A stretch of 63,980 bases of DNA, filler included, from Conidiobolus incongruus B7586 (GCA_000697335.1; 28 parts of 28 records of this genome joined end to end with filler, not necessarily neighbours in it); one strand, 5' to 3'; shown: positions 1 to 63,980, numbered from the whole stretch's first letter. A program made the numbers and translations. Notes: a model not told the origin generated them from the letters alone.

Positions 1-1150
1 ATATTATTAGTTTGAAATAAATAAATATATACAAAGTTAATAGGAAATTATATATTTTTAATATATATATAATAATTTTTTTATTTTAAAAATATAATTT
101 TTAAAATTTATTGTTTAATTTAATTATACTTAAATTAAATAATAACCATCAAAAGTTTTTTATTTTAGTATTAGTAAAACTTAACCACAAACCCTCTAAA
201 ATCATTTAAAATTTACAAACAACTTTTGATAATAAAGTATTATCTAAATTAACAATTAATCACTAGATAAATTATTTTAAGATTAAGAGAAAAATTACCC
301 AAAACTTATTAAAATTTATAAGATTAATTTCAACTGTTTTTTTCAAATTATTAATAAAATAAAAAAAAACATATTAAAAGGTACTTTTTTATTTCAGGTG
401 AAGAATTATCAAGATATTTTAATATTAGTTATATAAGTATTTTATAAATATTAAAGTTTAAATTAATATTAATTAATAATAATATAAAATAGGTATCTTA
501 TAATTTAACTAAAACTTAAAATTAAAATAGCTATTGTTAAACAAAACTTACTAAGATATAACTAGGATTTAAAGCTTTTATAATAAATTATTATAATTGA
601 TAAATCTTAGATTTTTTGTATAATCTTTTATTAAATTATAAATCAAGATGTTAGATTAAGCTAAATCAACTTCTTTTATAAATTTCTTTAAATAAACATT
701 ATATTAATAAGTAAATATTAATTATTATAATAAATTATAATATTATATGCTATTCCTATTTAACTCTTAAAGAAGAATTAATTAATAATAAACTTTATAT
801 TTTTTAAATTAAATTATTTTTAATTGGTATTTTTAATATAATTTGAGAAAATCTATTATTTTGCATGATAATTATAAAATATAAAAATCTAAAATTGTAA
901 AAAACTTTCTAATTAAAAATAAATAAAAGAAACTACTATATTTAGTATATTCCTTAGATTATAACTCATGTGATTATAATTGCTTTAGGTAATTAAAAAA
1001 CCAACTTATAAGAAAGAAAATTTTTATAAGAAAATTTAATTAGTTTATAAAATATCAAATTTCAGTTTTTAATAAAAAGAATTATATTTTAGATATTAGA
1101 TCTTTATTAAAAATATTACAAAAAATTATTAGAGGTAAAAGATTTTATTG
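1..1150 (+). mobile_element. Degenerate mariner (DD34D) transposon, family A
   Basis: Collinear with the other A copies. It keeps ttg cat gat aat (LHDN) near 861 and tat tcc tta gat tat aac tca tgt gat tat (YSxDYNxCDY) near 948-977. Many TAA/TAG stops derive from CAA/TGG. Confidence 0.88.
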
Positions 1151-1175
1151 ATTCTATATAATATATTTATTTTTT

Positions 1176-1275
1176 NNNNNNNNNNNNNNNNNNNNNNNNN
1201 NNNNNNNNNNNNNNNNNNNTTAATTAATTAANNNNNNNNNNNNNNNNNNNNNNNNNNNNNNNNNNNNNNNNNNNN
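1176..1275. other. Artificial contig-joining linker (44 N + TTAATTAATTAA + 44 N); first of 27
   Basis: The same 100-nt spacer, with stops in all six frames, starts at 1176, 2460, 3686, 9288, 10656, 11880, 13202, 14722, 16009, 17359, 18619, 27146, 28321, 29464, 32899, 34933, 36052, 37356, 38963, 40081, 46362, 56291, 57635, 58763, 59940, 61576 and 62705. Confidence 0.99.
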
Positions 1276-2591
1276 AAAAATAAATGAAAATTATAATTTA
1301 AATTATTTAATAAATTTATTTTATAATAATTATTAAAATTAATAATAATAAAAATTTTTTTAAATTAAATTAAATTAATTGAAAATTGTTAACTTATAAT
1401 AATAATATAAATATACATTCATTTTATATTAATAATATTAATTTTGAATTATATATATTTTATTAAATTAAAATTATATTATTTTCACATTGTTATTGGT
1501 TAATATACCATTCAGAAACTTTTGAGTTTAAATATAAAGATAATAATCTAATAGATTATTATCAAAAATTTATTTTTATAATATTTATGCAATATAATAT
1601 AAAAAATCATATTTTATATAACAAAAGCATTTTTTTGAATTCAAGAGATAATTGAGTATATAATTATTTATAATTAAAACCCTCTATTTATTTAAAATGA
1701 AAATATTAATTAAATAAAAAAATTATATAATTAAATATCAAATTTATTATATATATAGATGGACTTAATTTTAAAAATTAAAAATTTAATTAATTGGATG
1801 ATTTATTAATATTATTATACCAAGTAATATAATTGATTAAATACCTTTTAACCAATATATATATATATATATTTGGCTTGTTATAAAGTTTTTTATTGAT
1901 TTGCTTGTTATTTATATTTATTACTCTTAACTTGAAATTCAAAAATATATGGATTTATATATTTAATATTATTATTGAATATAATATAATATAATCTTCC
2001 AAATTAATTAATTATATTATTTAAGTTATTATTAAAAGTTTATTTCTGTAATACTAATTACAAAATAGATATCCTTTATATTTTAAATTATATATTCATT
2101 ATTTTATAGGATGGAGTATAATTTAATATAAATATCTCTTAAAAAAGTTAGAAATTTTTAATTAAGATTTAATTCAAAATATAATATTATTACTATAATA
2201 ATCATAAGATAATTTAAAATTAAAATCAATATTAAATAAAATTTTTAATATATAATATAAAATATATAATATAAAAAATTAAATATATAATAAAATTATT
2301 AAAAAATAATTATTTTATCAAATATTTAAAATTAATATGATATAAATTATTTTAGTTTATATATAAAATTTTTTTATAAAAATATTTTTTAATTAGCTAA
2401 AGCAATTATAATGACATATTTATATTTTGATAAATATAATAAATATAATAGATTTTGTTNNNNNNNNNNNNNNNNNNNNNNNNNNNNNNNNNNNNNNNNN
2501 NNNTTAATTAATTAANNNNNNNNNNNNNNNNNNNNNNNNNNNNNNNNNNNNNNNNNNNNATATTAATAAATTAATATATACTTTTTATCTA

Positions 2592-3685
2592 TATTAACTT
2601 GCAAAAATAAGTTATAAAATCAAAAACACTTATATTTTTATTAATAACTTGATTAAAATTTAATAAAATAAACTTATATTTAATAATTAAAATCTATTAT
2701 ATTTATTAATAATATATATCATTAAATAATAATATTTAGCTATTAATTGGTTAAAATATAGACCCTTGAATTTTACCTAAAGTGAGTTATAAATTTTTGG
2801 ATTTTTGATGATAAAAAAATTAAAACCTAATGTATCTATTTTTAGCTTTTTTATTTTTTTTAAATTTATGGGGTATAAAGTCAACTAATTTTTTATATTA
2901 AGAGGGGTTATTCTTATTTTATACTTCTTGAACATATTCTTAAAATTGATTTAAATTTTTTGCTAAAGGGAAAGTTTTAATAATTATTTTAACTAATCCT
3001 TAAGAAGTTTAATTAGATTAATATTAAAAGATTAAAGTGGCTATTTTATAACTATTATCTTGTTATTTTTAAGCTATTTGGTAATAAAAGTTATAATATA
3101 AAATAAGCTATTAATTTACTAGAAAATAATCTTAAATTTATATAACTTATTTTATTCAATAATTTTTTTAACTTATTATTTAAAATATTTTAATATATTT
3201 TAATATTAATTCCCCTATTAACTTTATAAAAATACCCTATTTTTAAAGACAACATATAATTTTAAATAAAAATTAACCTATTATTATACTTTTAAGTAGA
3301 ATTAATATAATAGTTATAATATAGTTCTATATTTTTTCTGAAGTTTTTAACTACTTTATTAAATTTATTAAAATATATTTTTGTTTTATTAGACTAAATA
3401 ACCTTATTCCAACTAGTTTTAATTTAATATTAGTAATAATATTTAAATTCCCATTTAATTTTATAATGGGATTTTTTTTAGTTAAGGGTGTTTTTTCTTG
3501 TGGTATAAGTAATATCTATGCTAATATAAAATATATATAATATTATTAATGCTAACTAATATTCTTATATAGTTTTATAATTCTTGTTATATTTTTACAA
3601 TAATATTATACTTGCTTGTATTAATTAACTTATAGATATTTTTCTTATTATATTAATTTATAATCTTAATATATTTAAGTTTAGG
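2592..3685 (-). mobile_element. Degenerate Tc1-like (DD34E) transposon, family B, with 3' TIR
   Basis: Reverse-collinear with the 17459-18618 copy. The TIR end tattaacttgcaaaaataagttataaaatcaaaaac follows a TA. Confidence 0.88.
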
Positions 3686-7634: not shown

Positions 7635-8771
7635 ATGAAGTTGGCCAAATTATTAATTTTTGTATCATTAACAGTATTTGGTGAAGCGAAGCCATTTAAC
7701 AGTGATTCTGCAGAACTTGATACACAAAACAATAGTAAAATACCCAGGCCAACCACTGTCCAAACCCCATATATTAAAACTACTAAAATAACCAAACCTC
7801 CTAAACCGACCACTACCCCTTGTACCAAGACCACTAAACCAACTACTACTCCATGCACTAAGGCTGCTACTACCACTCCTTGCACCACTACTACAACTAC
7901 TCCATGTACCACTACTACTACCACTAGTCCATGTACCACCACTACTACAACTACTCCATGTACCACCACTACTACTACCACTCCTTGCACCACCACTACT
8001 ACAACTACTCCATGTACCACCACTACTACTACCACTCCTTGCACCACTACTACTACAACTACTCCATGTACCACCACTACTACCACTCCTTGCACCACTA
8101 CTACAACTACTCCATGTATCACCACTACTACTACCACTCCATGTACCACCACTACTACCACTCCTTGCACCACTACTACAACTACTCCATGTATCACCAC
8201 TACTACTACCACTCCATGTACCACCACTACTACCACTCCTTGCACCACTACTACAACTACTCCATGTATCACCACTACTACTACCACTCCATGTACCACC
8301 ACTACTACCACTCCTTGCACCACTACTACAACTACTCCATGTATCACCACTACTACTACCACTCCATGTACCACCACTACTACCACTCCTTGCACCACTA
8401 CTACAACTACTCCATGTATCACCACTACTACTACCACTCCATGTACCACCACTACTACCACTCCTTGCACCACTACTACAACTACTCCATGTATCACCAC
8501 TACTACTACCACTCCATGTACCACCACTACTACCACTCCTTGCACCACTACTACAACTACTCCATGTATCACCACTACTACTACCACTCCATGTACCACC
8601 ACTACTACCACTCCTTGCACCACTACTACAACTACTCCATGTATCACCACTACTACTACCACTCCATGTACCACCACTACTATTACAACTACTCCTTGTA
8701 CCATTACTACCACTCCATGCACCATCATTACCACTACTCCATGTCCTGAAACTACCACTATTACTCCCTAA
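7635..8771 (+). CDS. Secreted Thr/Pro/Cys-rich mucin-like protein (378 aa)
   Basis: Intact ORF with a signal-peptide-like start (MKLAKLLIFVSLTVFGEA), then PC(T)6-7 repeats. No transmembrane or GPI tail seen. TATA-like atataag lies near 7551. Confidence 0.85.
   Translation: MKLAKLLIFVSLTVFGEAKPFNSDSAELDTQNNSKIPRPTTVQTPYIKTTKITKPPKPTTTPCTKTTKPTTTPCTKAATTTPCTTTTTTPCTTTTTTSPCTTTTTTTPCTTTTTTTPCTTTTTTTPCTTTTTTTPCTTTTTTTPCTTTTTTPCTTTTTTPCITTTTTTPCTTTTTTPCTTTTTTPCITTTTTTPCTTTTTTPCTTTTTTPCITTTTTTPCTTTTTTPCTTTTTTPCITTTTTTPCTTTTTTPCTTTTTTPCITTTTTTPCTTTTTTPCTTTTTTPCITTTTTTPCTTTTTTPCTTTTTTPCITTTTTTPCTTTTTTPCTTTTTTPCITTTTTTPCTTTTITTTPCTITTTPCTIITTTPCPETTTITP
8065..8665 (+). repeat. Coding minisatellite: about 8 identical 75-bp higher-order units (24+24+27 nt; PCTTTTTT-PCTTTTTT-PCITTTTTT)
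   Basis: The tgtatc (Cys-Ile) marker recurs every 75 nt from about 8115 to 8640. The lines starting 8101 and 8401 are identical. Confidence 0.95.
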
Positions 8772-9387: not shown

Positions 9388-10655
9388 CTCTTTTTATTAT
9401 TATTTTATATAATATTTTATAAATATACTAAATTTTTTTATTAATATTATTATACCTAAATCTCTTTTTAAAAAAATCTATTTGTGTATTAATTAGCTTT
9501 ATAATAAAGGTAAATTAACTTGTAATATTATTAGAATTATTAGTGTTAGTTAATTTACTATAGTTAAAGTTATTAAAAATAGCAATAAAAAAATATTTAA
9601 ACTTAAACTTAAATGTGTTAAAATTATAAATGAATATAATAAGAAATATATTTATAGGTTAGTTAATACAGGTAAATATAATATTATTGTAGAAATATAA
9701 CAAAAATTATAAAATTATATAAAAATATTAGTTAACACTAATGCTATTATATATACTTTATATTAATATAGATATTACTTACACTTTAAGAAAAAACACC
9801 CTTAACTAAAAAAATCCCACTATAAAGTTAGATAAAAGTTTAAATATTATTACTAAAATTAAACTAAAACTAATTAGAGTAAAGTTATTTAATTTAATAA
9901 AATAAAAATATATTTTAGAAAATTTAATAAAAAAGCTAGATATTTTAAAAAAGATATAAAATTACTTTATAACTATTATATTAATTTTATCTAAAAGTAT
10001 AATAATAAGTTAATTATTATTTAAAGATATATATTATTTTTAGGTGTAAGTTATTTTTATAAAGTTAATAAGGGAATTAATATTAAAATGTATTAAAATA
10101 TTTTAAATAATAAATTGAAAAAAATTATTAAATAAAATAGGTTAAATAAATTTAATATTATTTTTTAATAAGATAATACTTTTTATTATATTAAAGTTTT
10201 TATTACTAAATAGCTTATAAATAACAAGATAATAGGTATAAAATAGCTTCTTTAATTTTCTAACTCTAATTTAATTAAATTTTTTTTAGATTAGTTAAAA
10301 TATGCTATTAAAGTTTTCCCCCTAATAAAAAATTTAAATTAATTTAAAAATTATGTTTAGGAAGTATAGAACAAGATTAACCCTTTTTAATATAAGAAGT
10401 TAATTGATTCTATACCTTAAAAACTTAAAGAAGTTAGAAAAGCTAAAGATAGATATATTAAATTTTAATTTTTTTTTATCATTAAAAACTTACAAATTTA
10501 TAACTCACCTTAGGTAAAATTTAAAGGTTTATATTTTAACTAATTAATAACTAAATATCATCATTTAATAATATATATAATCAATAAACTTATAGATTTT
10601 AATTATTTAATTTAAGTTTATTTCATTAAATATTAATTAAGTTATTAGTAAAAAT
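9388..10655 (+). mobile_element. Degenerate Tc1-like transposon, family B
   Basis: Collinear with other B copies. It ends in gaa gtt aga aaa gct aaa (EVRKAK) followed by the long TIR. Confidence 0.88.
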
Positions 10656-11979: not shown

Positions 11980-13201
11980 CACTTATATATTTATTAATAA
12001 TTTAATTAATATTTAATGAAATAAATTTAAATTAAGTAATCAAAATCTATTATATTTATTAATATTATATTTTATTTAATAATGATATTTAATTATTAAT
12101 TGGTTAAAATATCAACCCTTAAATTTAATTAAGATAGGTTATATATTTATAGATTTTTAGTGATAAAAAAATTATAACTTAATATATTTATCTTTAGTTT
12201 TACTAATTTTTTTAAGTTTATAAGATATAAAATCAATTATTTTTTTTAATTAAACAAGGTTAATTTTATTTTATACCTCTTAAATATATTCCTAAAATTA
12301 ATTTAAATTTTTGATTAAAGGAAAAGTTTTAATAATTGTTGATTTTTTAGGTCAAGTCCTGGTTGGAGGGGATTATACTTATTCTTGATCTCTGAGTTAC
12401 CTTGCTTTTCTATAATTTATAGTTATAATGAAGTTAGATTTTATTAATTTCAGAATATATTAACTAGACAAAATACTTGCATAGATTAGTAACAAAGTAT
12501 ACCTTTTTATTTTTTATTTCTAAGAAAAACCAAAATTAATTTATTTTCTAAAGCAATAAAAATTATCTTTTTATATAAATATCAAATTCCCATGATTCCT
12601 CAAATAAGATTAAAAAAAATAAATCCTAAATAGTAAAATGGTAAAATAGTAAAATAGTAAAATAGCTGATTAACTCCATTTTTAGCCAATAACTTGACAA
12701 TAATTTTTTTGACTAATCTTAAAAATATTTAATGAAATTAAATTTAAGAGATTAAAAAAGTTACTTTATAACTATTATCTTGTTATTTTTAAGTTATTTG
12801 GTAATAAAAGTTATAATATAACAAAAAGAATTATCTTACTAAAAAATAACATTAAATTGGTTTAACCAATATTATTCAATAAATTTATTGAATTTATTAT
12901 TTAAAATACTCTAATATATTTTAATATTAATTACCTTATTAATTTTATAAGGATAGTTTTTAACTAAAAACAATATATATTCTTAAATAATAATTAACCT
13001 ATTAATATATTTTTGGGTAAAATTAATATAATGCTTATAAAATAATTTTTATATTTTTTTTGAAATATTTAACTTTTTTATCAAATTTACTAAAATATAT
13101 TTTTGCTTTATTAAATTAAATAATTTATTTTAAATAATTCTGATTTAATATTAATAGTAATATTGAAATTCTTATATAATTTTATATTATGACTTCTGTA
13201 G
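11980..13201 (-). mobile_element. Degenerate Tc1-like transposon, family B, interrupted by a solo LTR
   Basis: Collinear with 2592-3685 on both sides of the 12337-12699 insertion. Confidence 0.88.
12337..12699. mobile_element. Solo LTR (363 bp) with 5-bp TSD ATAAT
   Basis: TGTTGA...TTGACA termini. ATAAT lies at 12332-12336 and 12700-12704. The empty site is visible in other B copies (about 2975-2995). It contains internal gtaaaata tandem repeats. Confidence 0.85.
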
Positions 13202-13462: not shown

Positions 13463-14949
13463 AAAAAAAGTTAAATTATTAAAGCTATTTTGTTCCCAAA
13501 ATAAAAAATATCATGATATAAATATAAATTAAATATTATTGATTTAAGCTTATTCCTATCAAGATATTTTAATATAAATATTTTCTATTATTAATAGATC
13601 TCATATATTATATTTTTTTTTACAAATTATTTATTAATTAATTTTCAATATTTTTAAAATTATTAAATACCTATTGGTTTTTGAATTTGAAGCAATTTTT
13701 ATTAAAATATTTTGATTTTGAATTTTGCTTAGTTATATATATAATATATATTGATTCTAAGAAATATTTGATTATAATTAGTTTGTTTTAAGATAGCAAG
13801 TTTATTTTGCTCACAATTTAATATTATTCTCGTGATCTAAATTCATAGTTGATTTTTTTAATATTTTAATTTTTTTAATTATATATATGTTTCTACACTT
13901 TTTATCTTATATTAATTATTTTTTAAACATAAAATAATTATAAATTTTAACCTGTTGATTTTTAAATTTACAACTTTATATATTTAATTATTTAACATTT
14001 TATTTAGAATTAATAACCTTATGTTACTTTTTTTATGTTAGATTTGGAAAATATAAATCCATAATAAAAATATTTATATTTGAACATTATATATTCCTCA
14101 AAGATAATTAATTTATATATTTGCTTTAATAAGGTTAAATAGTTATAATAATAATAATAACTATAATTAGGTATTGAATTAGTTTCGTGAAAATTTTGAT
14201 ATTTAAGAATTTTTTTAAATTATTTTATTAATTATTTGAAATTTATTTATTAATGTTTTCAAGAGATTTTTATAAAATCAAATCTTTAATAATAACGTTT
14301 TTTCCTTAATTTAATATTATGGTGTTTTAAAACAAATTCACTAATATTAAACTTATACTTTAATAGAATGAATAATGCTAAAGCAAACATAATATAATTA
14401 TAATAATAAATAATTCCTTTTTTTGGATAATAAAATTCAATATTAATGGTAATTATTCATCCCCTTTATATAATTTTTTATAATTTATCTTTCAAAATTA
14501 CACTTTTAATTATGAAAAATAAAGTTAAAATATAATCAAATCTTTTCTTTGAATCAGATTCTTTGATTTACTAAAGTAATCATAATCACAAAAATTTATA
14601 ACTAATGAATACAATTGAAATAATAATAAAGACCAATGTTCTTTAATATATAAATTATTGATAATTTCTATAATATATATATATTATCATATATAATTAA
14701 TAGTTTTTTAATTGAATTTTTNNNNNNNNNNNNNNNNNNNNNNNNNNNNNNNNNNNNNNNNNNNNTTAATTAATTAANNNNNNNNNNNNNNNNNNNNNNN
14801 NNNNNNNNNNNNNNNNNNNNNTCCTATCTGTTTTGTATATATTTTTTTATTTGAAACTAATAATGTATTTGAAAAATCAGAAATTAAAAAATTTCTTATT
14901 TTTTAATTTTATAATAATATTATATATATTTTATATTAATATGGATACT

Positions 14950-15836
14950 ATTGATATCTTAAGAAAAATCACTTTTGATTAAGGAAATGTTATTATAAAA
15001 TTAAATAGGAGTTTAAATATCATCACTGATGTTGAATTAAAATTAATTAAAAAAAGTTATTTAGTTTAATAAAATAAAAATAAATGTTAAAAAATTTAAT
15101 AAAAAGTTAAATATTTCAAAAAAAAACAAAATACTTTATAATTATTATATTAATTTTACCTAAAAATATAATGATAGGTTAATTATTATTTAAGAATATA
15201 ATTTGATTTTAAATATAAGATATCTTTATAAAGTTAATAAGGGAATTAATGTAGAAATATATTAAAATATTTTAATATTAAATTAAACAAAAAAATATTG
15301 AAAAATATAAGTTAAATAAATCTAATATCATTTTCCAAAAAAAAATAATGCTCCTTGTAATAATATAATTTTTTTCTACCAAATAGCTTAAAAATAATAA
15401 GATATATTTATAAAATAGCTTCTTTAATCTTTTAACTTTTATTTAATTAAATATCTTTAGGATTGGTTAAAAAAAGCTATTAAAGCTTTTTCCTTAATAA
15501 AAAAATTAAATTAGTTTTAAAAATATATTAAAAATATATATAATATAATTAACCCTTTTAAATATCAGAAGTTAGAAAAGCTAAAGATAAATATATAAAG
15601 TTTTAATTTTTTTTCATCATCAAAAAACAATAAATTTATAACTTACCTTTGGTAAAATTTAAAGTTTGATGTTTAAACCAATTAATAACTAAATAACAAC
15701 ATTTAATTATTTATATTATTAATAAAATAAGATATTCTAATTATTTAATTTAAGCTTATTATATTAAATATTAATTAAATTATTAGTAAGAATATTAGTG
15801 TTTTTAATTTTATAACTTATTTTTATAAACTAGTAT
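14950..15836 (+). mobile_element. Degenerate Tc1-like transposon, family B, with 3' TIR
   Basis: It keeps ttc caa ... aat gct cct tgt (FQ..NAPC) near 15333-15358 and has a small internal deletion near the C-terminus. Confidence 0.85.
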
Positions 15837-16189
15837 ATATTATTTTTATTTATTTAAAATAACTTCTAATGATATTTATCTTAATAACAATTCTAGTTAT
15901 TCCAAAGCCTATATAATAATAAATAAATGATTTTTATAATAAATATTCATTAAATAAAAAAATGATAAAAATATAATATATATCAGTGATTTTTATTTAA
16001 AATAATTANNNNNNNNNNNNNNNNNNNNNNNNNNNNNNNNNNNNNNNNNNNNTTAATTAATTAANNNNNNNNNNNNNNNNNNNNNNNNNNNNNNNNNNNN
16101 NNNNNNNNATATATTATTATATATTATATCTTTTTATTTTAAATTTTCTTCTATACTATATTAGTTTAATTATTATTATATTTATATAA

Positions 16190-48821: not shown

Positions 48822-48900
48822 TATTTTTGTTATATTTTTTTATTGATTAAATACCAAAGTTTAAATTTCTATTTAATGATTAATACCTAATTCTAAATTA

Positions 48901-48908
48901 TTATGGGA
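48901..48908 (-). promoter_or_regulatory. Candidate promoter motif TCCCATAA upstream of the ankyrin gene
   Basis: 80 nt upstream of the ATG at 48821. The same 8-mer has the same orientation and spacing at ERG28 and the BCD1-like gene. Confidence 0.55.
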
Positions 48909-49020
48909 TACAAAATAAATTACTCAAGTCAATTAAAAGTAAAATAATAAAAAGAAATAGGTTAAATTTTAAACTAAAGATTAATTTATTTTTTTGATAT
49001 CAATTCAATAAAAAAACTTA

Positions 49021-49576
49021 TTAATGAATATAATAATTGTAAGATTTGTACATCCAAACCATAGAAAGAGCTAAAAATCCAATTAATATGTCTCAAATAT
49101 TAAATAAATAATTCAAACTTACTAGAAATAATCATAGGACCAATAGTACCAGCATTAATTCTTGCAGTTTTAAAGTAAAAAATTTCAGTATTGAAGTGGA
49201 AGAATGCTAGGACATAGGTTAAAAAAGTCATGTGGTAAATACTAAAGTATAAATTATTAGTACAAATCAGCATATATTTCACAATATTGGTTACGTTTTA
49301 TCGTGAATATTATAAGCTGCATAAGCTCTGATAATACCGGAAGTAAACGTCCAAACTGCGAATAATCTACCAGCCAAACCAGTAACTAAATACAATAAGA
49401 TTATTATTCAAAAGTGAGTCTGATGACTATTTACCTTCTTGAGGCTGCTGATCATAAATTCTTCTATTGAACTTAAAAGGACTCAAAAAGCATTGCGCAG
49501 AGTTGAAAAATGCTAAAGTTGATACGAATAAAAAGTACTTGGGTAAGTAGCCTTCAGGTAAGTAAAATCCTAACAT
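49021..49576 (-). CDS. ERG28: Ergosterol biosynthesis scaffold protein Erg28; 4 exons
   Basis: Spliced: MLGFYLPEGYLPKYFLFVSTLAFFNSAQCFLSPFKFNRRIYDQQPQE|VTGLAGRLFAVWTFTSGIIRAYAAYNIHDKT|IYHMTFLTYVLAFFHFNTEIFYFKTARINAGTIGPMIIS|TLSMVWMYKSYNYYIH*. It carries the hallmark Erg28 motifs. Confidence 0.95.
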
Positions 49577-49649
49577 TTTATTAATAAATTAATATTAAGA
49601 ATTTATCATTATTATTTGGTATTATTAAATAATTAAATTTTAATCAATA

Positions 49650-49657
49650 TTATGGGA
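49650..49657 (-). promoter_or_regulatory. Candidate promoter motif TCCCATAA in the 187-bp divergent ERG28/TASP1 intergenic region
   Basis: 74 nt upstream of the ERG28 ATG, and the only G-rich island in that spacer. Confidence 0.55.
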
Positions 49658-49763
49658 GTTTTAATAATATAAATATTTTGTATTCAATTTCAATTCATTA
49701 CTTTTTTTTTCAATTTTTAATTAATGTAATAATATTTTTATTTTGAAAAAATTAAAATAAATA

Positions 49764-51666
49764 ATGTTTTTAGCAATACATATAGGAGCTGGTAATAAAT
49801 ATAATTTAAATTTAAAAATTGAAAAATTAATTTTAATTAGGTTATCACAGTCCCCGAAAAGAGTCAGAATATAAAAAATTATTAAGAAAGTAAATATCAT
49901 TAATATTTATTACAATAGTATATTATTTATGCTTTAGAGCTTTAAAACTTGGGAAAAATTTATTATTAAACAATAAAAGTGGAATTGAAGTTATTACAGA
50001 AGTTATTGAATATTTGGAAGTAATTGATATAATTTACTATTATTAGAAATTTTTTATTAATATAAACTTTTATAAAAAATAGAATTCAGAATTAACTAAC
50101 GCAGGTAATCCCAATTAACATGTTATTAAATAATGAGAGTAAATTCAACAATATAGGCTATGGATCCAACCTCAATATCAATGGAGAAATTGAATTAGAT
50201 GCAAGTTTAATGAGTGGTAAAACACATATTTTCACATCTGTGGGTGCCATGTCAAGTAATTATATTAAATTTTCAACGAATTATCATTAACGATAACAAT
50301 ATTAAGATATAAAAAATCCAATTAAGTTATGTGAAAGAATGATGTCACATTATGATAAAGGTCATTGGAGTTTGGGTAGAATTCCTCCAATGTAATTTTA
50401 ATGAAATGATTTAAGTACTGGAATATTAATTTTTATTTTCGATTAGAATGTTATCAGGGAAACATAACGAGCTAATAAGTTCCATTTACAATATTCCAAT
50501 AATTGATTCTAAAGAACTCATATCAAGTAATTAATTATTAGTTAATAGCATATCATTATTAATAAGTAATGTAGATGAAAGTTTTAATCAATACGAAAAA
50601 CATTTAAATAAATTAAAAAATTATCACAGAATTAAAGAAACTGAAAATTTTGGATTGAAGAGTTTTTTTAAGTATAGTGAAAACAATGTAATTAATCTAT
50701 TATATTATATTGAAAAATTATTAAATTATTTATTTTTTATTTAGAATAGTCAATTTTCAGAGATTAATAATGAAGACAATCGAGACAATTTTTACGATAC
50801 TGTCGGCGCTATCTGTATAGATCATGAAGGAAATATCGTGTCGGGATGCAGTTCAGGTGGTATTGCTCTAAAATTGGCTGGAAGAGTTGGTGAAGTAGGA
50901 ATATAAATTTTATATTATTTTCTATGATTGATGAGTAAGTTTAGGCTGCCATTAAAAAACTCGGATGCTATGCCGAAAACTGTAACGATTCTAATTCAAT
51001 AGGCATTGGTTATAGCTGTACAGGTAACTAATATATCATTCAATTAATTTATTACTGGTACCAGTTGATTAGGAATGGGAGAACATTTAACAACTGTGAA
51101 CCTGGGAGAAGAAATTACAAAACATTTCAAATATTATCTTAACCAGAGTGAAATTGACGCAACATTTGATTCTAAATATTTATCAGTTCTGGATTATTTG
51201 GAACCTCAATTACATTTAATCAATAGTAATATAATACACACATATATAAGTATATACAACAAACTAGTAACTTATTTAGATCATCATTCTTTAAACCAAT
51301 TCGATTTAAAATTAATGGGTATATTATTTTTGGGTTGGGATTTGAAGAATTCAGGTATTTTTTATCCATACTCATAATATTTATCTTATCAATTATTTGT
51401 TAGATTTACATTGTATTAAATGCTTCTCAACTCCTTCCATGGTAATATATATTATTTATAATTAATATCGTTATTAATAATGATTTTAGGGTTCTGGTTA
51501 TTGGTACTCTAAAAAAGATGAAATGAAAGTAAATTTTAATAATTTATATTATAATATGATTGGAATTCATTCATTGATTTAATAGGTATCAGTTGACTAT
51601 AACGATTCTTACAATTTAAAATCAGATACTAAATGGTGTTTGATTGGTCAAAAGTTTAAAATTTAA
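49764..51666 (+). CDS. TASP1: Threonine aspartase 1 (Taspase1)-like Ntn-hydrolase; about 15 exons
   Basis: Spliced: [13 protein letters not shown]...[28 protein letters not shown]...IKNPI...SLGRIPP...FYD^[34 protein letters not shown]...CT|GMGEHL...FSTPSM...QKFKI*. It has the D/T autocleavage site and the SSGG-LK-GRVG motif of Taspase1. Confidence 0.92.
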
Positions 51667-51923
51667 AATTTCATAAATAGTTTAAATTATTATATAGAAT
51701 AAAATAAATGTAGTTATTATTTAATATTAACGATGAAAAATGCATTTATATTCATGATTATACATTTTGTCAATATCCAACTAGTATTAAAATTGAGTAA
51801 TAAATTCTGATTACTCTTATAAATTGAAGACATACCAATTAAATTATTAAATATAACACTATTATAACCTTAATCACTTTATTAATATAAACTCTATTTA
51901 CACTCTAAGTCTAAAACAGCTAA

Positions 51924-52432
51924 TTAATCCTCAGTTTTTTTATTCGCACCCAACTTATTCCTCTTCTTCAATTTGTTTTTAAATTTTTTCTGGAGTAAAG
52001 AAATTTTCTTCAATTTGGTCTCGCTTAAATTTAATTTTGTATTTAAATCTTCTAAATAATTAAAATCTATAACTTTATCAATATGAAATTTATGTGTATG
52101 ATATTATGGTGTTTACCTTGTGTTAAATTAATATCAGAATAGTTTTTTCTAGAAATAAATTTGGTAGGATCGCGTTCGCCAGAGCAATTGAATTGAGTTT
52201 TATGTTCCTTGGAACATTTTAAACTACAAGTTTTATATAGACAATTAGGACACTTGTACTTGTATTTTTCAACTTTGCAGATTTGACAGTTGTTGGACGG
52301 TATTTCTTCCTCAGGAATATGGTTCTGTATTTTGGTGATGGTGGTGGTATTGGCTGCATTAAAATTTAGATTGGGAAATAGTTCTATACTTTCGTGGTTG
52401 GTTTCGGTATCGTCTATTTTATTTGATTCCAT
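51924..52432 (-). CDS. BCD1: zf-HIT protein, Bcd1/ZNHIT6-like but short (152 aa); 2 exons (52117-52432, 51924-52066)
   Basis: CQIC...KYKCPNCLYKTCSLKCSKEHKTQFNCSGERDPTKFI, then a 50-nt GT-AG intron, then DFNYLE (the Bcd1 DYNFL-type motif), a Lys-rich tail and a stop. Confidence 0.8.
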
Positions 52433-52511
52433 GTTATTAATTGTAGATTAATTTGATGGAAATTTAAAATTAAACAAAGCATGGATTTATAAAAATTAAA
52501 CTTTTTTCATT

Positions 52512-52519
52512 TTATGGGA
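52512..52519 (-). promoter_or_regulatory. Candidate promoter motif TCCCATAA upstream of the BCD1-like gene
   Basis: 80 nt upstream of the ATG at 52432. Confidence 0.55.
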
Positions 52520-52898
52520 TTGAAATTGACATGAAATATGTTAATTAAAAATAAGGTTAGAATATTAAATTAGACTAAATTATTGAAAAAAATGAATAAA
52601 AGTTGAGTATTATAAACAGATTGGGAATATATTAATAAAGTTAGTAAATATAAGAATATTGAAAAAAATTTAAAGTTAGGAGTTTTTTATGATATTGGAA
52701 AAAAATATTATTTAAATAGATAGATTGAATAAAGGGAATGTATGAAAATCATTAAATAATATTAATAACGTGAGAGGAATATATAAATTTATCAAAAAAC
52801 TAAACATTTTTGTTGAAAAAATATGAGCGAAATAATGAAAGTGATAAAAAATTAATAAATTAAAGTATTCATAATAAATTTCCAGTTAAAATGGTTAA

Positions 52899-52972
52899 GC
52901 TTCCATGGCGCAATTGGCTAGCGCGTCCGACTGTTAATCGGGAGGTTGGTGGTTCAAGCCCACCTGGGAGCG
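52899..52972 (+). tRNA. tRNA-Asn (GTT), intronless
   Basis: Acceptor stem GCTTCCA/TGGGAGC with discriminator G, D arm gcgc/gcgc, anticodon arm tccga-CTGTTAA-tcggg, T arm ggtgg-TTCAAGC-ccacc, and a T run at 52981. Confidence 0.97.
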
Positions 52973-53954
52973 TAGCCAGGTTTTGAATACATCTTTTTCA
53001 AGTGAAACTCACATAAATATATCTTTATTTTATAATTTCTTAATCTAAATTTTAATTTAATTTTTTTTAATTTCTATATAGTATTTAGTACTATATAAAT
53101 ATCTTATAATCCAATATTATTACTTCTATATTAAACCGAAGTATTACGCTCATTTTTTATAAATATACTATATTATAAAAGTTCCAATATTACAATAATT
53201 TTTAATGATGTCAATCATAAAACGAAATATATTCAGGGCGAAATTAAGGGTAAAATTAATATTAAATTTCCACCAATATCAAATTTTTTAGTTAGTATTT
53301 TCACTTCATCTAAGGTATATAAACTCTAATACAGCCTATCATGCTATAATCCAATTCATGGTTTGTTATTGTGTTTTGAAGTGTTGTTTATTTTTTTTGA
53401 ATTGTAATTTGTTTGAAGTATGGCTCTTTCAAAATAGAGTTTATCCTTGATTTTTAGCGATTTTGAAATTTCATAGCTATAATTTACTGGGAAAATTCCC
53501 TTATTTGGTGAATTCGAATACCAAGGATTTGAGTCTTGATATTTACAACTATTGTTAATATCTCAAGACGTTATAAAATTATAAAATCATTTTAAGTTAT
53601 AAAAATATAGTTATTAATTGAATAATTAATTATACTTATTAAAAGTTATATTATAAAATTATCAACTCCTAATAAGGATTAGTATTTGATTGAACTTCTT
53701 AAATAGCAAATTCAAATTTGAAAATTTACAAAAAGAAACTTTAGGGATAATACCAGTTTAGAAATAAAATAATCAAGAATAAAAAATCAATTAAAATTGT
53801 ATGTGTATCAATTAACCCTTAATATAGCGATAGTAAATTGGATATATAAGCAGCTAAAAGTCCTAAATATCCATATAATTTTATCATTATTTAAGTAATT
53901 TAAAATTCTTTAAAAAATAAAGTTTAATTATTAAATTTTTAAAGATATAAAATT

Positions 53955-54464
53955 ATGGAGACTAAAGTGGAAGAAAGTAAAGTATCTCTGTTGACTGGGG
54001 ATCCAGTTGAAGAACAGGTAAGTTAATATTTCAGAGCCTTATATATTCTATCATATTCACTTGAACTACTTCAGGTAATTTGGAGTGGTGTCACTTGGCC
54101 ATGGGCTTGTTTCTCCCCTCTCACATGCCAGTCCGTGACTTGGCATATTACGACCAAAAGAATTGAAAAGATCTACGGGTTCAGAGGTGGTAACTCCGAT
54201 ACCATCGACCTGAGAAGAATTACAGATATTTCTTATCACAGATCCCCTCTAGAAATGTGTACAATGAGAGGTTCTATAGTGATTCATTCAACGTAAGTTA
54301 TTTGCTTGTAAATGTATTTGATTTTATTTAATATGTTATTGATGCTTAGAATGGCAATGGAGCCGGTGATTACGATCTCCGGGTGGGGGTTAAAGCCAGT
54401 GTACCAAAGATTAAAAGAAGCTTGGTTAGCATCTAATGCAAATCAATTTATTATGTCTGCTTAA
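53955..54464 (+). CDS. Small bacterial-type PH domain protein (bPH_2/YdbS-like), 131 aa; 3 exons (53955-54017, 54075-54292, 54350-54464)
   Basis: Two 57-nt GTAAGT...AG introns give an uninterrupted frame: METKVEESKVSLLTGDPVEEQVIWSGVTWPWACFSPLTCQSVTWHITTKRIEKIYGFRGGNSDTIDLRRITDISYHRSPLEMCTMRGSIVIHSTMAMEPVITISGWGLKPVYQRLKEAWLASNANQFIMSA*. The ITxxRI...G...DLRRIxDI...S..E....G.I.I.S pattern matches bPH_2. Confidence 0.8.
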
Positions 54465-55479: not shown

Positions 55480-56290
55480 TATTACTGCAAAATTGAAGTA
55501 ATGAGAAATTTTTTAATTTCTGATTTTTTAAACATATTAATTTCATAAAAAAATATATACAAAATAAATAGAAAAAAAAATAACTTTAAACTATATATAA
55601 ATATTTAATGTTTTTTATTAAAAAATTAACTTTAAAACTTTATTGTTTAATTTAAGTATATTTAAATTAAATAATAATCAATATAAGTCTTTTATTTTAG
55701 TATTATAAAACTTAACCATAAGTTATTAAAAATCATTTAAAATTTACAAACAACTTTTAAAGATGGTGCTTTGTTTAAATCAATTATTTTCTACTAATTA
55801 AATTATTTTAAAGCTAAAAACAAAATTATTTAAAACTTAATAAAATTTAAAAATTAATTTTAATTATTAATCTTTTAAATATTATTAAAATAAAAAATAT
55901 ATTAATAAACTCTTTTTTATTCTAATTAAAAAATTATCAAAGCACTTTAATATTAATTATATAAGTATATTCTATATATTAAAACTTACACTTAGATTAG
56001 TTAATAAATATATAAAATAAATACCTTATAATTTAATTAAAGATTAAAAAAGTTAAAATAATTATAATTAAACAAAACCTAATAAGGTATAACTAAAGAC
56101 AAAAGCTTTTATAATAAATTATTATAATTAGTAAATTATAAATTTTTTATATAATCTGTTATTAAAATAATATTTAAAATACCTAGTTAAAATAATTTTA
56201 ATTATTAATATTTATATGTAAATATTTTATTATTAAGTAAATATTAATTATTATAATAAATTATAATGATATATATTATTTTTATTTAAT
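55480..56290 (+). mobile_element. Degenerate mariner family A, 5' part with left end
   Basis: It starts tattactgcaaaattgaagtaatgagaaattttt, partly complementary to the right end, and is collinear with 1-800. Confidence 0.8.
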
Positions 56291-56477: not shown

Positions 56478-57634
56478 TATTATGATTTTGTAATTTAAAT
56501 CATAGGAATTTTTTGTGATTGAAAAAATAAATATTTTAATATATAAAAAGTAAAAATAAATATATAATATAAAATTAATAATTTTTTTTATTTTTAATAA
56601 GTTTTTATTATATTTTTAACAAAGATCTAATATCTAAAAGACAATTCTTTTTATTAAAGACTTAAATTTAATATTTCACAAACTAATTATATTTTTTTGT
56701 AAAAATTTTCATTCTTATATGCTAATTTTTTAATTACCCAAAATAATTATAATCACATAGGTTATAATTTAAGGAGTATATTAAAGGTGGTAGTTTTTTC
56801 TAGTTATTTTTGATTAGAAAGTTTTTTATAACTTTAGATTTATATATTTTGCAATTGTTATACTAAATAATAGGTTTTTTAAACTATATTAATAATACCA
56901 ATTAGAAATTATTTTATTTAAAAAAATATAAAGTTTATTATTAATTGATTTTTTTAAAAACTAAATAAAAATAGAATATAATATTATAACTTATTATAAT
57001 AATTAATATTTATTTATCAATAAAATATTTATTTAAAGGAGTTTATAAAGGGGGTTGATTTAGTTTAATCTAACACCTTGATTTATGCTTTAATAAAAGA
57101 TTAAATAAAAAAATTTAAAATTCATTAATTATAATAATTTATTATAAAAGCATTGGTTTCTAGGTATACCTTAATAAGTTTTGTTTAGCAATAGCTACTC
57201 TAGCTTTTTCAAGTTTTAGTCAAATTATAAGATACCCATTTTATATTTTTATTAATTAATTTTAATTTAAATATTAATATATATAAAATACTTATATGAC
57301 TAATAATAAAATATCTTGATAATTCTCTAGTTGAAATAAAAAGATAATTTTCAATATATTTTTTTATTTTATTAATAATTAGAAAAATGATGGTTAAAAT
57401 TAGTTTATTAAATTTTAATAGGTTTTAGGTAGTTTTTTTAGCTTTAAAATAATTTACCTATTGATAAATTGCTGATTTAAATAATACTTTATTATTAAAA
57501 GTTAATTATGAATTTTGAATGATTTTAGAGAATTTATGCTTAAATTTTATTAATACTAAAACAAAAGACTTTTAATGCTTATTATTTAATTTAAATATAA
57601 TTAAATTAAATAACTAATTTTAAAAAATTATTTT
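56478..57634 (-). mobile_element. Degenerate mariner family A, abutting another A fragment (56391-56477, +)
   Basis: The minus strand keeps aaa tgg gta tct tat aat ttg act (KWVxxNLT, WVPHEL-type motif) near 57218-57241. The right end lies at about 56480-56520. Confidence 0.85.
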
Positions 57635-57734: not shown

Positions 57735-58672
57735 ATAGAATATTAATTTTAACCATTATTATATTAATTATTAAAAAAATAAATATATAAATTAAAAAAT
57801 AACCTTTTATTTAAGCTAAAAAATTATCAAAATATTTTAATATTAGTTATATAGGTATTTTATATATATTAAAGTTTAAATTAAAATTAATTAATAAAAA
57901 TATAAAAAAAAATATTTTATAATTTAACAAAAGTTTAAAAAAAGCTAAAATAGCTATTATTAAACAAAACTTGCTAAGATATTGCTAAAAACCAAGGCTT
58001 TTACAATAAATTATTATAATTGATGAATCTTAGATTCTTTTATATAATCTTTTACTAAAACATAAATCAAGGTGTTAGATCAAGTTAAATCAACCCTTTC
58101 TACAAATTCCTTTAAATAAACATTTTATTGATAAGCAAATATTAATTGTTGTAATGGATTATAATAACATATGCTATTTTTATTTAGTTTTTAAAGGAAA
58201 ATTATTTAATAGTAAACTTTATATTTTTTTTAAATAAAACTATTTCTAATTGGTATTCTAAATATAATTTGAGAAAACTTATTATTTTACATGATAATTA
58301 TAAAATACATAAATTTAAAGTTATAAAAAACTTTCTAATTAAAAACAACTAGAAAAAACTACCATATCTAGTATATTCTTTAGATTATAACCTATGTAAT
58401 TATAATTGTTTTAGGTAATTAACAAACTAACTTATAAGAAAGAAAATTTTTACAAAAAAATTTGATTAGTTTGTGAAATATTAAATTTCAGTCTTTAATA
58501 AAAAGAATTGTTTTTAAGTGTTAGATCTTTGCTAAAAGTATAGCAAAAAGTTATTAGAAATAAAAAAAATTATTAATTTTATATTATATATTTATTTTTA
58601 TTTTTTATATATTAAAATCTTTATTTTTTTTCAATCACAAAAAATTCCCATTATTTAAATTACAAAATAATA
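57735..58672 (+). mobile_element. Degenerate mariner (DD34D) family A, best-preserved copy, with right end
   Basis: Consensus reads IITIDESWI..YNP..KHxSRCWIK ... KPIILHDNCKxHK ... NNWxKLPHPVYSPDYNPCDYNCF ... SLPKxWQKVI. There are 34 codons between the HD Asp and the last Asp. Confidence 0.92.
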
Positions 58673-61285: not shown

Positions 61286-61316
<31 letters not shown>

Positions 61317-61675: not shown

Positions 61676-62704
61676 TATTAAAAGTAAGTGATAATAAAAC
61701 TATTACAGGTAAAATAAAAAAAGGAATTGATAAATTTAATAAAAATTATAAAGATATTATACTAACTAAAGTTTATAATATTAACTTTATAATATCTTAA
61801 TCAAGTATCAAATATAATTAAAAAAAATAGAATTTTCTTTAATTTTAATATTATAATAAATATTTCTAATATCTAATTTAATAAATATAGTTAATTTAGA
61901 TAATTTATTTTTAATATCATATAAGTTTAATAATAAAGTTTTATCCTTAATAGTTTTAAAGTTTATAATATAATTATTAATATATAATCTTTTACCATTA
62001 TTAACCTTTTATATAAAGAAAATTAAAGATTTTTATAATGAGGAAGAAAGTTTAACCTATATATTTTTAAGTAATTTTAAATTACTTATTTTAAAGTTTG
62101 ATATTATTAAGAAAATAAATAGTAAATAAATTTTAAATATAGTTATATATTTAAAAGAAATTTATTTTTATATTTAATATTATATTTAAGATATAAATTA
62201 TTTATAAATTCAAAAACATTAATAAATTAACTTATTATATTATATAAAAGATAGTTATTAGTTATAACTTCATTGAAATCAATAGATAAAATATTAATTG
62301 ATTAATAATAAAAAAATATATATCTTTTTAAATTATTAAAGTTTTTAATTAGTTTTTAATATTGATTTTTTTTATAATAATAAAATTACTTAACCTAATT
62401 ATAGTTTTATTATTAAGTAAAGTATTTGGTAGATTTATAATAAATTAATATAAAATTCTTAAGATTAACTCTATTAATTTCTTTTAGAAAATAAAAAAAA
62501 ATAAATTTATAACCTTTTAAAATAATATTTATAAATAAAAAACTATAGTATTTAAACTGATTTTAACCTAATATAAAACTTTAATTAATGATATTTATTA
62601 AAAATTTAATATATTAAAAATAATCAAAAAATAATTAATAGTATTTAAATATAATATTAGATATTTGTTCTAATAAACTATTAGTATATTTAATTATTAA
62701 GATA
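61676..62704 (+). mobile_element. Possible hypermutated retroelement relic (unclassified)
   Basis: TE-like texture. ttg gta gat tta taa taa att aat near 62426 could be an RT LVDLRxIN motif, but downstream RT motifs were not recognised. Confidence 0.25.
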
Positions 62705-62859
62705 NNNNNNNNNNNNNNNNNNNNNNNNNNNNNNNNNNNNNNNNNNNNTTAATTAATTAANNNNNNNNNNNNNNNNNNNNNNNNNNNNNNNNNNNNNNNN
62801 NNNNAAATATATATAAAATAAACAAGAAATTATATATCTTTAATTATATATATATTATT

Positions 62860-63960
62860 ATTATTTTAATTAAAACATTAATTTTTTAAAATTAGTTGTT
62901 TAATTTAATCATACTTAAACTAAATAATAATTATCAAAAGTTTTTTAATTTGGTATTAATAAAATTTAACCATAAACTCTTTAAAATTATTTAAAATTTA
63001 TAAGTAGCTCTTAATAATAAAATACTATCTAAATTAACAATTTATTACTAGGTAAATTATTTTAAAATTTAATAAGAAATTATTTGAAACTAGTTAAAAT
63101 CTAAAAAACTAATTTTAACTGTTATTTTTTTAATTATTAATATAGTGAAAAAATATATTAAAAAGTATCTTTTTATTTCAGTTATAATATTATTTAAATA
63201 TTTTAATATTAATTTTATATATATTTTATATATAAAGTTTAAACTCAAATTAATTAATCAAAATATAAAATAAATACCTTATAATTTAACTATAGTTTAA
63301 AAGAAAGTTAAAGTAGTTATTATTAAATTATACTTATTAAAATATTAATAGAAATTTAAGCTTTTATAGTAAATAGTTATAATTGATGAATTTTAAATCC
63401 TTGTATATAATCTTATATTAAAATATAAATTAAAGTGTTATATTAAATTAATTTAACCACCTTTATAAATCCTTTTCAATAAATATTTTATTAATAAAAA
63501 AATATTAACTATTATAATAAATTATAATAATATATGTTACTTTTATTTAATTTTCAAAGGAAAATCAGTTAATAATAAGCTTTATATTATTTTTTTCAAT
63601 AAAACTATTTTTAATTGGTATTTTTAATATAATATAAAAGATTTATTATTTTGCATAATAATTATAAAATATATAAATTTAAAGCTATAAAAAATTTTCT
63701 GATTAAAAATAATTAGAAAAAAAATATCATATCTAGTATTTTCTTTAGATTATAACCTATATGATTATAATTATTTTAAGATTTTAAAAACCAACTTATA
63801 AAAAAATTTTTATAAGAAAATTTAATTGATTTTAAAATATTAAATTTTAGTTTTTAATAAAAAGATATGTTTTTTAAGAGTTAGAAATTTGCTAAAAATA
63901 TAGAAAAAAGTTTTTAATAATAAATAAAACTATTATATTTATAATATATATATATTTTTA
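62860..63960 (+). mobile_element. Degenerate mariner family A
   Basis: att gat gaa near 63382 and gat tat aac cta tat gat tat near 63748. Collinear with 1-1150. Confidence 0.88.
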
Positions 63961-63980
63961 TATATTAAATATCATAATAT

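Follow-up and report, generated by a model that had tools for sequence, protein, structure and literature searches.

A RIP-like excess of C:G to T:A mutation in dispersed transposons of a likely entomophthoralean fungus

Introduction

RIP, or repeat-induced point mutation, is known mainly from sac fungi. Close direct repeats are good substrates for it in Neurospora, and in N. crassa and other Pezizomycotina, where RID and DIM-2 are involved, its marks are C:G to T:A changes confined to repeats and present on both strands, a strong loss of CpA, and transposon frames broken by Trp- and Gln-to-stop changes. The transposons described here carry the same marks, and no near-identical copies are seen in the window (the whole stretch of 63,980 nucleotides that was analysed). 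They differ in that their host probably lies outside the Dikarya, CpG is lost even more than CpA, CpT and CpC are heavily hit, a perfect tandem array is unhit, and the process is known here from its sequence footprint alone.

Two other systems invite comparison. The Dim2-dependent mitotic mutator of Zymoseptoria tritici, a methyltransferase-linked precedent that requires no sexual cycle, also produces repeat-confined transitions far above background; as the available text describes it, more than 98% of the changes fall at CpA and CpG is spared, whereas here CpG is gone, some 57% of CpT is lost and CpC is hit as well (PMC8016269). The hypermutation of the Pucciniomycotina, according to the available part of its description, is likewise a RIP-like footprint seen in transposon alignments, targets CpG, and occurs in a lineage without experimental RIP, but it is restricted to TpCpG, whereas here most losses lie outside CpG and the C/G gone amounts to about half or more (PMC3318451).

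Whether RIP extends beyond the Dikarya is disputed in print. It has already been proposed for the Entomophthorales from dinucleotide indices in a 2024 eLife study, whose available sections attach major caveats and report a RIP index signal in 24.2% of Zoophthora radicans windows (PMC11105155). A 2025 kingdom-wide screen contradicts this, restricting RIP-like defence to ascomycetes and scoring all eight Zoopagomycota in its table, Conidiobolus coronatus among them, as 'no_rip'; in that table C. coronatus also resembles Neurospora in lacking near-identical repeats of 1 kb, with 0 against 555 (PMC12543289). The index study shares with ours the fungal order and the idea of RIP beyond the Dikarya, but in its available sections it uses dinucleotide indices only and leaves Conidiobolus and Neoconidiobolus out of the RIP analysis (PMC11105155). 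What the present analysis adds is evidence at the level of alignments: the copies are aligned, their spectra polarised and the target context anchored on a protein, with internal controls alongside.

Results

Transposon families and host

An artificial 100-base spacer (N/TTAATTAATTAA/N) links the 28 small contigs that make up the window, which contains ten Tc1 copies, eight mariner-like copies and one Ty3/Gypsy integrase relic (Table 1). The three transposon classes named in the earlier note are recovered, the mariner-like one weakly. A profile built from 13 in-frame pieces of the Tc1-like family (X) matches the Sleeping Beauty transposase (E 1.2e-14), and 27427-27900 matches a Ty3-G integrase (E 3.3e-4). 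Family Y is mariner-like by degraded motifs recognised by eye. Its database matches are weak, the one to Mos1 (E 0.3) ranking below chance hits to ribosomal proteins and the other being to DDE_3 (E 0.19), and a search with its middle piece returned no match. The DDE_3 match came from scanning 42 read-through relic frames against Pfam, where the one further match was due to chance; a structure-bank search with the relic segment 61676-61990 gave none. The copies, most of them about 1 kb long, are collinear as previously noted, with 1-11 indel events each and 13 in the old Y copy. Pairwise identities are 74-87% in X and 72-86% in Y, and no pair within the window exceeds 87%; because diverged copies are over-represented among small leftover contigs, this lack of intact or near-identical copies is a property of the window.

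Table 1. Repeat copies and control features in the window.
Feature	Coordinates	Strand	Remarks
Family X (Tc1-like)	2586..3685	-	Hypermutated
Family X	9388..10655	+	Hypermutated; frame reference in codon counts
Family X	11980..13201	-	367-bp insertion at 12337-12703
Family X	14900..15860	+	A<->T changes and indels more numerous
Family X	17459..18618	+	Hypermutated
Family X	28421..29463	+	Probable second subfamily; changes common to 36152-37355
Family X	35049..36051	-	Lowest A<->T (0.5%); C/G loss 57%
Family X	36152..37355	-	Probable second subfamily
Family X	37472..38815	-	Target for placing sequencing contigs
Family X	39063..40047	+	Hypermutated
Family Y (mariner-like)	1..1175	+	Hypermutated
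Family Y	33000..34220	+	Hypermutated
Family Y	34633..34932	-	Fragment
Family Y	55511..56290	+	End of gene-rich contig; CpA falls at copy's edge
Family Y	56480..57634	-	Hypermutated
Family Y	57735..58672	+	Hypermutated
Family Y	62805..63980	+	Hypermutated
Old diverged Y relative	22682..23860	+	About 63% alike; CpA and CpG intergenic-like, no footprint
Ty3/Gypsy integrase relic	27246..28320	+	CpA-depleted, no CpG
Relic	61676..62704	-	Shares the composition footprint (CpA o/e 0.45, CpG absent); resemblance to reverse transcriptase by eye only, without a database match
GPCR gene, family A	44588..45496	+	Intact; control and host marker
GPCR pseudogene	41452..42237	+	Control; 69% alike to gene, ordinary spectrum
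Thr-rich ORF	7635..8771	+	Control; about eight identical 75-bp tandem units, CpA sites kept
Gene cluster	48044..54461	.	Control; ankyrin protein, ERG28, asparaginase-2/taspase-like, zf-HIT, tRNA-Asn, bPH_2; normal CpG and CpA

The host is likely to be a member of the Entomophthorales, an early-branching order of insect-killing fungi, a placement drawn from one gene family. Of 38 relatives found for the GPCR gene, 20 were looked up and ten of these carry organism names; all ten are entomophthoralean (six from Conidiobolus coronatus, two from Neoconidiobolus thromboides and one each from Massospora and Entomophthora), the top named ones at 26-35% identity, and the host accordingly appears to lie outside the Dikarya, as had been supposed. 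A word-based protein search with the same gene found one relative, and single-exon searches of this kind with bPH_2 and zf-HIT found none. No run of RNA data was listed as containing the gene cluster, whose words are nearly absent from three runs of another organism.

Size and direction of the excess

Because maximum-GC reconstruction over-counts private A>G and T>C changes and under-counts fully lost sites, we took polarised rates from leave-one-out and protein-anchored counts. By leave-one-out, C/G changed to T/A at 1182 of 2291 inferred sites in X (52%) and 428 of 919 in Y (47%), while C/G transversions number 84/2291 and 32/919 and A<->T changes 164/6297 and 117/4162 (about 3%). Both strands are hit, as the earlier note held (in X, C>T at 605/1149 and G>A at 577/1142), and different copies do keep different C/G: the four-gamete test is failed by 56% of the pairs of informative transition sites in X and by 49% in Y, the corresponding figures among A/T sites being 28% and 24%. 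The excess is real and repeat-specific, though it had been overstated, since C>T and G>A changes do not account for almost all of the damage; they make up 1182/1563 of the polarised changes in X (76%) and 428/705 in Y (61%). Among pairwise differences, transitions contribute 4891/7309 in X (67%, and 77-83% in the closest pairs) and 2021/3665 in Y with the old copy included (55%); most of the remainder is A<->T, which amounts to a quarter to a third of all differences. With a single Gypsy relic in the window, the spectrum claimed for that class can be assessed by composition alone (CpA o/e 0.59, 0 CpG).

In each run some 19,000 sequencing contigs could be placed on one 1351-bp X copy at an 80% likeness threshold, below which intact copies may fall; transitions account for 241 of the 270 variable places, and none of three Trp middle positions in the placed contigs comes up to a 35% share. 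A reading in which most genomic copies are intact, with shares of 85-95%, was dropped, as those values came from a selected top 40 rows and a further listing gives mostly 33-69%.

Sequence context

On both strands the losses follow the order CpG (at least equal to CpA), CpA, CpT, CpC. In X the loss by 3' neighbour, as lower bounds, is 0.63 for CpA, 0.57 for CpT and 0.45 for CpC, and by 5' neighbour it spans 0.45-0.55. At seven Trp positions conserved with Sleeping Beauty the codons are now TGG 3, TAG 25, TGA 1, TAA 37 and other 3, so that the base in CpA context is gone in 62/66 and the other base in 38/66; in ancestral CC pairs the 3' C was lost first, by 134:48 in X and 41:29 in Y. Losses lie mostly at CpA, CpT and CpC and are not concentrated at TpCpG.

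Composition agrees with the earlier description of CpG and CpA loss and AGCT survival. The repeats have two CpG sites in 17.7 kb, whereas intergenic DNA just as rich in AT has 74 in 24.2 kb; CpA o/e is 0.55-0.71 and CpG o/e 0-0.04 in repeats (GC 12-13%) versus 1.15 and 0.55 in intergenic DNA (GC 15%), and AGCT, CTAG and ACT are enriched in repeats over intergenic DNA 3.3-fold, 4.0-fold and 1.6-fold. A direct count of CpG decay finds 0 kept against 2.3 expected, from only six informative sites, too small a number to carry weight. Both dinucleotides are candidates for the prime target: CpA is lost in 62/66 at the Trp codons, and CpG is depleted further.

Controls

The footprint is confined to repeats, being absent from intergenic DNA, exons, the GPCR pair and the old Y copy. 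Genes keep their CpG as had been reported (exon CpG o/e 0.76, CpA 1.10), but they are not in general 'nearby': most lie on separate contigs across the artificial spacer, and contig 46462-56290 is the sole one with both identified genes and a young transposon copy. The transition:transversion ratio at C/G sites is 14:1 in X and 13:1 in Y versus 1.55:1 in the GPCR pseudogene (p 2e-18 and 6e-15), a control that is one pair and part of whose divergence arose under selection; the transposon spectrum therefore departs from that of a gene-family pseudogene, as the earlier interpretation expects. The window holds no recent non-transposon duplication.

Age of the copies

A clock with one rate is rejected both for X (p 0.0004, from eight of ten copies, without the two of subfamily 2) and for Y (p 0.03, from seven of eight, without the old copy). 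Adding a burst to the clock improves the fit for Y (p 0.003), and in X it brings no significant gain (p 0.08), the fit being still poor. Loss rises with age in Y (rho 0.89, p 0.007) and shows no trend in X (rho 0.26, p 0.47), where the copy least aged by A<->T change (0.5%) has already lost 57% of its C/G.

Discussion

On balance we favour, with some reserve, a RIP-like mutator of dispersed repeats that is driven by a methyltransferase and probably works without a true RID. The dispersed multi-copy transposons have been hypermutated from C:G to T:A on both strands, which broke their transposase frames; a DNMT1/DIM-2-class cytosine methyltransferase, recruited to the repeats, is the likely agent, and would actively drive C-to-T change in repeated rounds. 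The dependence of loss on the 3' neighbour, with little dependence on the 5' one, and the near-total loss of CpG point to such an enzyme, and the size of the excess and the heavy damage to the least-aged copies argue for active mutation and not slow spontaneous decay. Repeats may be recognised through copy number or similarity, as suggested by the lack of a footprint in the 63%-alike old copy and the 69%-alike gene pair and by the lack of window copies more than 87% alike; the route could be direct DNA pairing, or small RNA and heterochromatin, and the timing zygospore formation or vegetative growth. The perfect tandem array, unmutated, disfavours a simple Neurospora-type trigger.

That array is also an observation against a mutator as such, with some eight identical 75-bp units in the Thr-rich ORF that keep all their CpA; selection, homogenisation of the units or assembly could account for its intactness. 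The rise of loss with age in Y and the burst-plus-clock outcome in X also count against it, and no one processive round can be made out, since mutations within copies show neither clusters nor same-strand runs. Cytosine methylation (5mC), for its part, is reported to be scarce in the Zoopagomycota studied (PMC11258239).

A rather unlikely alternative is passive decay, in which repeats carry dense methylation whatever the context and C slowly becomes T by spontaneous deamination of 5mC, with neither an active mutator nor homology sensing. Such decay would suit the most complete loss being at CpG, the rise of loss with age in Y and the lack of mutation clustering or same-strand runs within copies (residual correlations -0.07 to 0.09, though many rounds would erase such structure), and a 436-bp island at 11030-11465, which lacks CpG and keeps CpA, is as plain CpG methylation would leave it. 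Spontaneous 5mC decay has, however, roughly a tenfold effect, and the required rates are well above this: on average 20-40 times the A<->T rate for non-CpG sites, and about 100 times for CpA (62/66 lost versus 2.6% A<->T). The missing age trend in X and the rejected single clock also speak against it.

Canonical RIP, with a true RID/Masc1 orthologue acting premeiotically on paired repeats and predating the split of Dikarya and Zoopagomycota, seems improbable, even though the CpA preference, the transitions on both strands and the 72-87% identity of the copies all fit it. Other Entomophthorales do have proteins with two DNA_methylase matches that are sister to RID, but these are 12-14% identical to it and over 1200 aa long, and in the available text their authors hold that they are not readable as RID homologues (PMC11105155). 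A survey of 633 proteomes found Masc1/RID in the Dikarya only, apart from one bacteria-like chytrid protein (PMC5751038). The unmutated tandem array and the near-total loss of CpG are further points against canonical RIP.

We think it very improbable that an AID/APOBEC-like cytidine deaminase acted on the transposon DNA. The C-to-T-only change would agree with one, as would TpC being slightly further depleted in repeats (o/e 0.72-0.77 versus 1.09), but these enzymes read the 5' base and single-stranded DNA, whereas the losses track the 3' base and hardly the 5' base, the DNA transposons are hit equally on both strands, and mutation runs are absent. A general drift towards AT, in a genome very rich in AT, has little left to recommend it: intergenic GC is just 15%, and the large A<->T share of pairwise differences is in its favour, but the ordinary spectrum of the GPCR pseudogene leads us to reject it, the old Y copy has many more transversions, as does the pseudogene pair, the CpA/CpT balance is opposite in repeats and intergenic DNA of similar GC, and the implied equilibrium GC is 2.6% in X and 4.4% in Y versus 13.5% in the GPCR pair. 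A sequencing or assembly artefact is most unlikely. Although the window is leftover contigs strung together and the four sequencing runs with window sequence are one sample that may be its source, the assembly has intact genes, every long low-depth contig from the runs differs in its own way (by 9-20 per 100 letters in the pieces listed), and C>T equals G>A within single copies.

Beyond the methyltransferase-driven mutator favoured here, we raise tentatively, as a possibility that goes further than we would yet commit to, that the Entomophthorales run their own homology-sensing, RID-independent mutator, led by CpG and CpA and active in all contexts. RIP-like defence might then be older than the Dikarya or have arisen twice, and the AT-rich background, which the mutator may help to build, could hide it from index and k-mer screens. 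When we applied an approximation of the 2025 screen's rule to the window, 0 k-mers passed and the strong footprint was missed (rule from PMC12543289). The footprint may also bear on the small AT-rich genomes here as compared with the transposon-swollen ones of the related Entomophthoraceae. Fungi of the Conidiobolus type can be grown in culture and zygospores are formed by many of them, which brings the mutator's origin, enzyme and timing within reach of direct tests.

Repeat families and genes

Three classes of transposable element in the window have been destroyed by a repeat-confined C-to-T process that acts on both strands and depends on the 3′ sequence context. Self-comparison of the window yields ten copies of one family (X) and eight of another (Y), one of the latter being old and about 63% alike to the young ones. 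A profile of family X built from 13 in-frame pieces, with stops read as X, matches the Sleeping Beauty transposase across 207 positions (E 1.2e-14), which places the family in the Tc1 type. The mariner label of family Y leans partly on motifs that we take to be of that group, besides weak matches to Mos1 (E 0.3, below chance hits in the ranking) and DDE_3 (E 0.19); a search with its middle piece returned no match. The third class is represented by a Ty3-G integrase match. Each copy of X or Y carries 1-11 indel events (13 in the old Y copy), and copies are 74-87% identical in X (45 pairs) and 72-86% in Y (21 pairs, old copy left out).

GC content is 9-20% in most bins of the window and higher in genes, which also include those for an ankyrin protein, ERG28, an asparaginase-2/taspase-like protein, a zf-HIT protein, a bPH_2 protein and tRNA-Asn. 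The array units of the Thr-rich ORF consist of Thr runs with Pro-Cys at the end, ACG is used for none of its 231 Thr codons, and its comparison with Pfam gave no match. The 27 spacers of 100 bases between the 28 contigs (each 1.0-9.8 kb) are all identical (N44, TTAATTAATTAA, N44) and are an assembly device with no biology; as the contigs are joined artificially, adjacency across spacers is meaningless.

Coordinates of features in the window
Feature	Position	Remarks
Thr-rich repeat ORF	7635-8771	Likely signal peptide; perfect 75-bp tandem array
Old copy of family Y	22682-23860	
Ty3-G integrase match	27427-27900	E 3.3e-4
GPCR pseudogene	41452-42237	Frameshifted, intronless; in tandem with the gene
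GPCR gene	44588-45496	Family A, intronless

Spectrum and context of the mutations

The earlier note described the elements as altered almost entirely by C→T and G→A changes. Counts of pairwise differences make this too strong: transitions account for 4891 of the 7309 in X and for 2021 of the 3665 in Y, the remainder being mainly A↔T. What stands is the excess of transitions per site, which is very large owing to the small number of C/G sites. Nearly every column with a C or G in at least one copy varies (98% in X, 95% in Y), compared with 19% and 16% of columns made up of A/T only. When the ancestral state of each copy was inferred from the remaining copies (seven copies in Y), C/G→T/A changes numbered 1182 among the 2291 site-copies of X and 428 among the 919 of Y, together with 84 and 32 C/G transversions and with A↔T changes at 164 of 6297 and 117 of 4162. 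These C/G→T/A counts are lower bounds, because sites lost near-universally are invisible. C→T and G→A, and hence both strands, are about equal in frequency. Pairs of transition sites are incompatible in 56% (X) and 49% (Y) of cases (28% and 24% for A/T sites), a strong homoplasy that is expected if each copy was hit separately.

Protein conservation gives an unbiased view of context at seven Trp positions aligned to Trp of Sleeping Beauty, where the X copies read TAA 37 times, TAG 25, TGG three, TGA once and other codons three times. The base with CpA context on the opposite strand was lost in 62 of 66 such codons, and the second base in 38 of 66. In the alignments, loss by 3′ neighbour in X is 0.63 for CpA, 0.57 for CpT and 0.45 for CpC, and in Y it is 0.48-0.53; by 5′ neighbour all values lie within 0.45-0.55. 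Observed/expected ratios in X and Y are 0.55 and 0.71 for CpA (1.15 in intergenic DNA) and 1.40 and 1.32 for CpT (0.83 intergenic). There are only two CpG sites in all 17.7 kb of X and Y, as against 74 within 24.2 kb of intergenic DNA; we infer the place of CpG in the context order from this composition, and a direct test of CpG decay draws on six sites only.

Timing and mechanism

Loss of C/G in X is uncorrelated with age as measured by A↔T changes (rho 0.26, p 0.47), and one copy has 57% of its C/G gone at only 0.5% A↔T. In Y the loss grows with age (rho 0.89, p 0.007), starting at a minimum of about 36-41%. A single rate for all copies is rejected both in X (p 0.0004, with 8 of 10 copies used) and in Y (p 0.03, with 7 of 8), and a burst added to a clock improves the fit for Y (p 0.003), not clearly for X (p 0.08). 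We looked for clustering or strand runs of mutations within copies and found none. The timing is thus mixed, and leans towards early, heavy, repeated hits. Passive decay of 5mC is an unlikely explanation of these losses.

The reading that we consider probable, by a small measure, is that a methyltransferase of the DNMT1/DIM-2 class is recruited to multi-copy DNA, where it would methylate cytosine or deaminate it directly. The resulting T would become fixed at replication, and rounds would recur until copies were ~80% alike or good targets were exhausted. The mitotic Dim2 mutator is described in PMC8016269 and the TpCpG pattern in PMC3318451, and PMC7862722, PMC11258239 and PMC13297926 treat fungal DNMTs as general background.

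Canonical RID-dependent RIP is a distinctly poorer candidate. The process works in a RIP-like manner; its CpG and tandem-array behaviour differ, and it is no more than a putative case of RIP proper. About eight identical 75-bp tandem units of the Thr-rich ORF retain CpA, which counts against a plain homology trigger. The host very likely lies outside Dikarya: a search of 1.84 billion representatives found 38 relatives of the GPCR at E ≤ 0.001, and all ten that are named, among 20 looked up, are entomophthoralean (C. coronatus 6, N. thromboides 2, Massospora cicadina 1, Entomophthora muscae 1), with identities of 24-35% where listed and 21-61% across all matches. Such identities make the host a relative of these four species and not demonstrably one of them. 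Two single-exon protein searches for a second host marker gave no match. The survey in PMC5751038 detected Masc1/RID in Dikarya alone, save for one bacteria-like chytrid protein.

PMC11105155 gives a RIP index of 24.2% for Z. radicans, compared with 2.4-5.7% in three further Entomophthorales. It also describes RID-like domain layouts, which its authors stop short of treating as homologues; Conidiobolus lies outside that RIP analysis. PMC12543289 finds RIP-like signatures in ascomycetes only and lists C. coronatus as 'no_rip'. In its identity table, repeat hits of at least 1 kb in this species number 0 at 95-100% identity versus 555 at 80-95%. This resembles N. crassa (0 versus 3873) and is unlike five other fungi looked up, which have 222-32,129 hits at 95-100%; the shortage could also stem from a fragmented assembly. 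None of the window's k-mers passes our approximation of that paper's two-fold k-mer rule. In the openly accessible part of the literature searched, we found no alignment-based account of such a footprint in Conidiobolus-like fungi. A cytidine deaminase, in place of the favored methyltransferase, is improbable.

Controls and sequencing runs

General AT drift is still less credible, and the footprint is real and far beyond it. Between the GPCR gene and pseudogene, the 193 C/G sites show 62 transitions and 40 transversions, and the 509 A/T sites show 49 A↔T changes. The resulting transition:transversion ratio at C/G, 1.55 for this single pair whose divergence is partly under selection, compares with 14 in X and 13 in Y (p 2e-18 and 6e-15), so that the spectra of elements and gene-family pseudogene differ, in keeping with the earlier proposal of repeat-targeted hypermutation. 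The implied equilibrium GC is 13.5% for the GPCR pair, near the intergenic 14.9%, versus 2.6% for X and 4.4% for Y. The old Y copy is like intergenic DNA (CpA 1.04, CpG 0.62), which suggests either that AT-rich intergenic DNA is partly decayed transposable element or that the mutator spares copies that have diverged.

An artefact is highly improbable. Four sequencing runs of one sample contain the gene cluster; they may be the window's source and are not independent. About 19,000-25,000 contigs per run align to one X copy, so the family is evidently high-copy, this depth not being convertible to copy number. Run X1 has 270 variable places there, of which 241 are transitions. Across 37900-38150, most variable C/G sites have run-contig shares of 33-69%. 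The shares are rank-correlated with retention among the window's copies (rho 0.65, p 0.005, 17 sites), and none of three Trp middle positions stands at a share of 35% or above; together these indicate that family X as a whole carries the footprint, as seen by alignment at 80% likeness, from which intact copies may escape.

Composition islands and relics

A 436-bp island at 11030-11465 (GC 31%) has no CpG versus 5.6 expected (p 0.004) and normal CpA, and is flanked on each side by strongly CpA-depleted relic DNA; it may be a later insertion with CpG-only decay, a second, milder tier. A 367-bp insertion inside a Tc1 copy (12337-12703, GC 22%) also lacks CpG, and its CpA depletion is milder than that of the host copy. 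The islands at 60400-61050 and 30500-31500 (GC 25-30%), with normal CpG and CpA, are possibly unrecognised genes or pseudogenes; the short frames tried against Pfam had no match. Two AT-rich contigs are relic-like, with CpA depleted in 16600-17358 of the one (16109-17358) and only mildly in the other (58863-59939).
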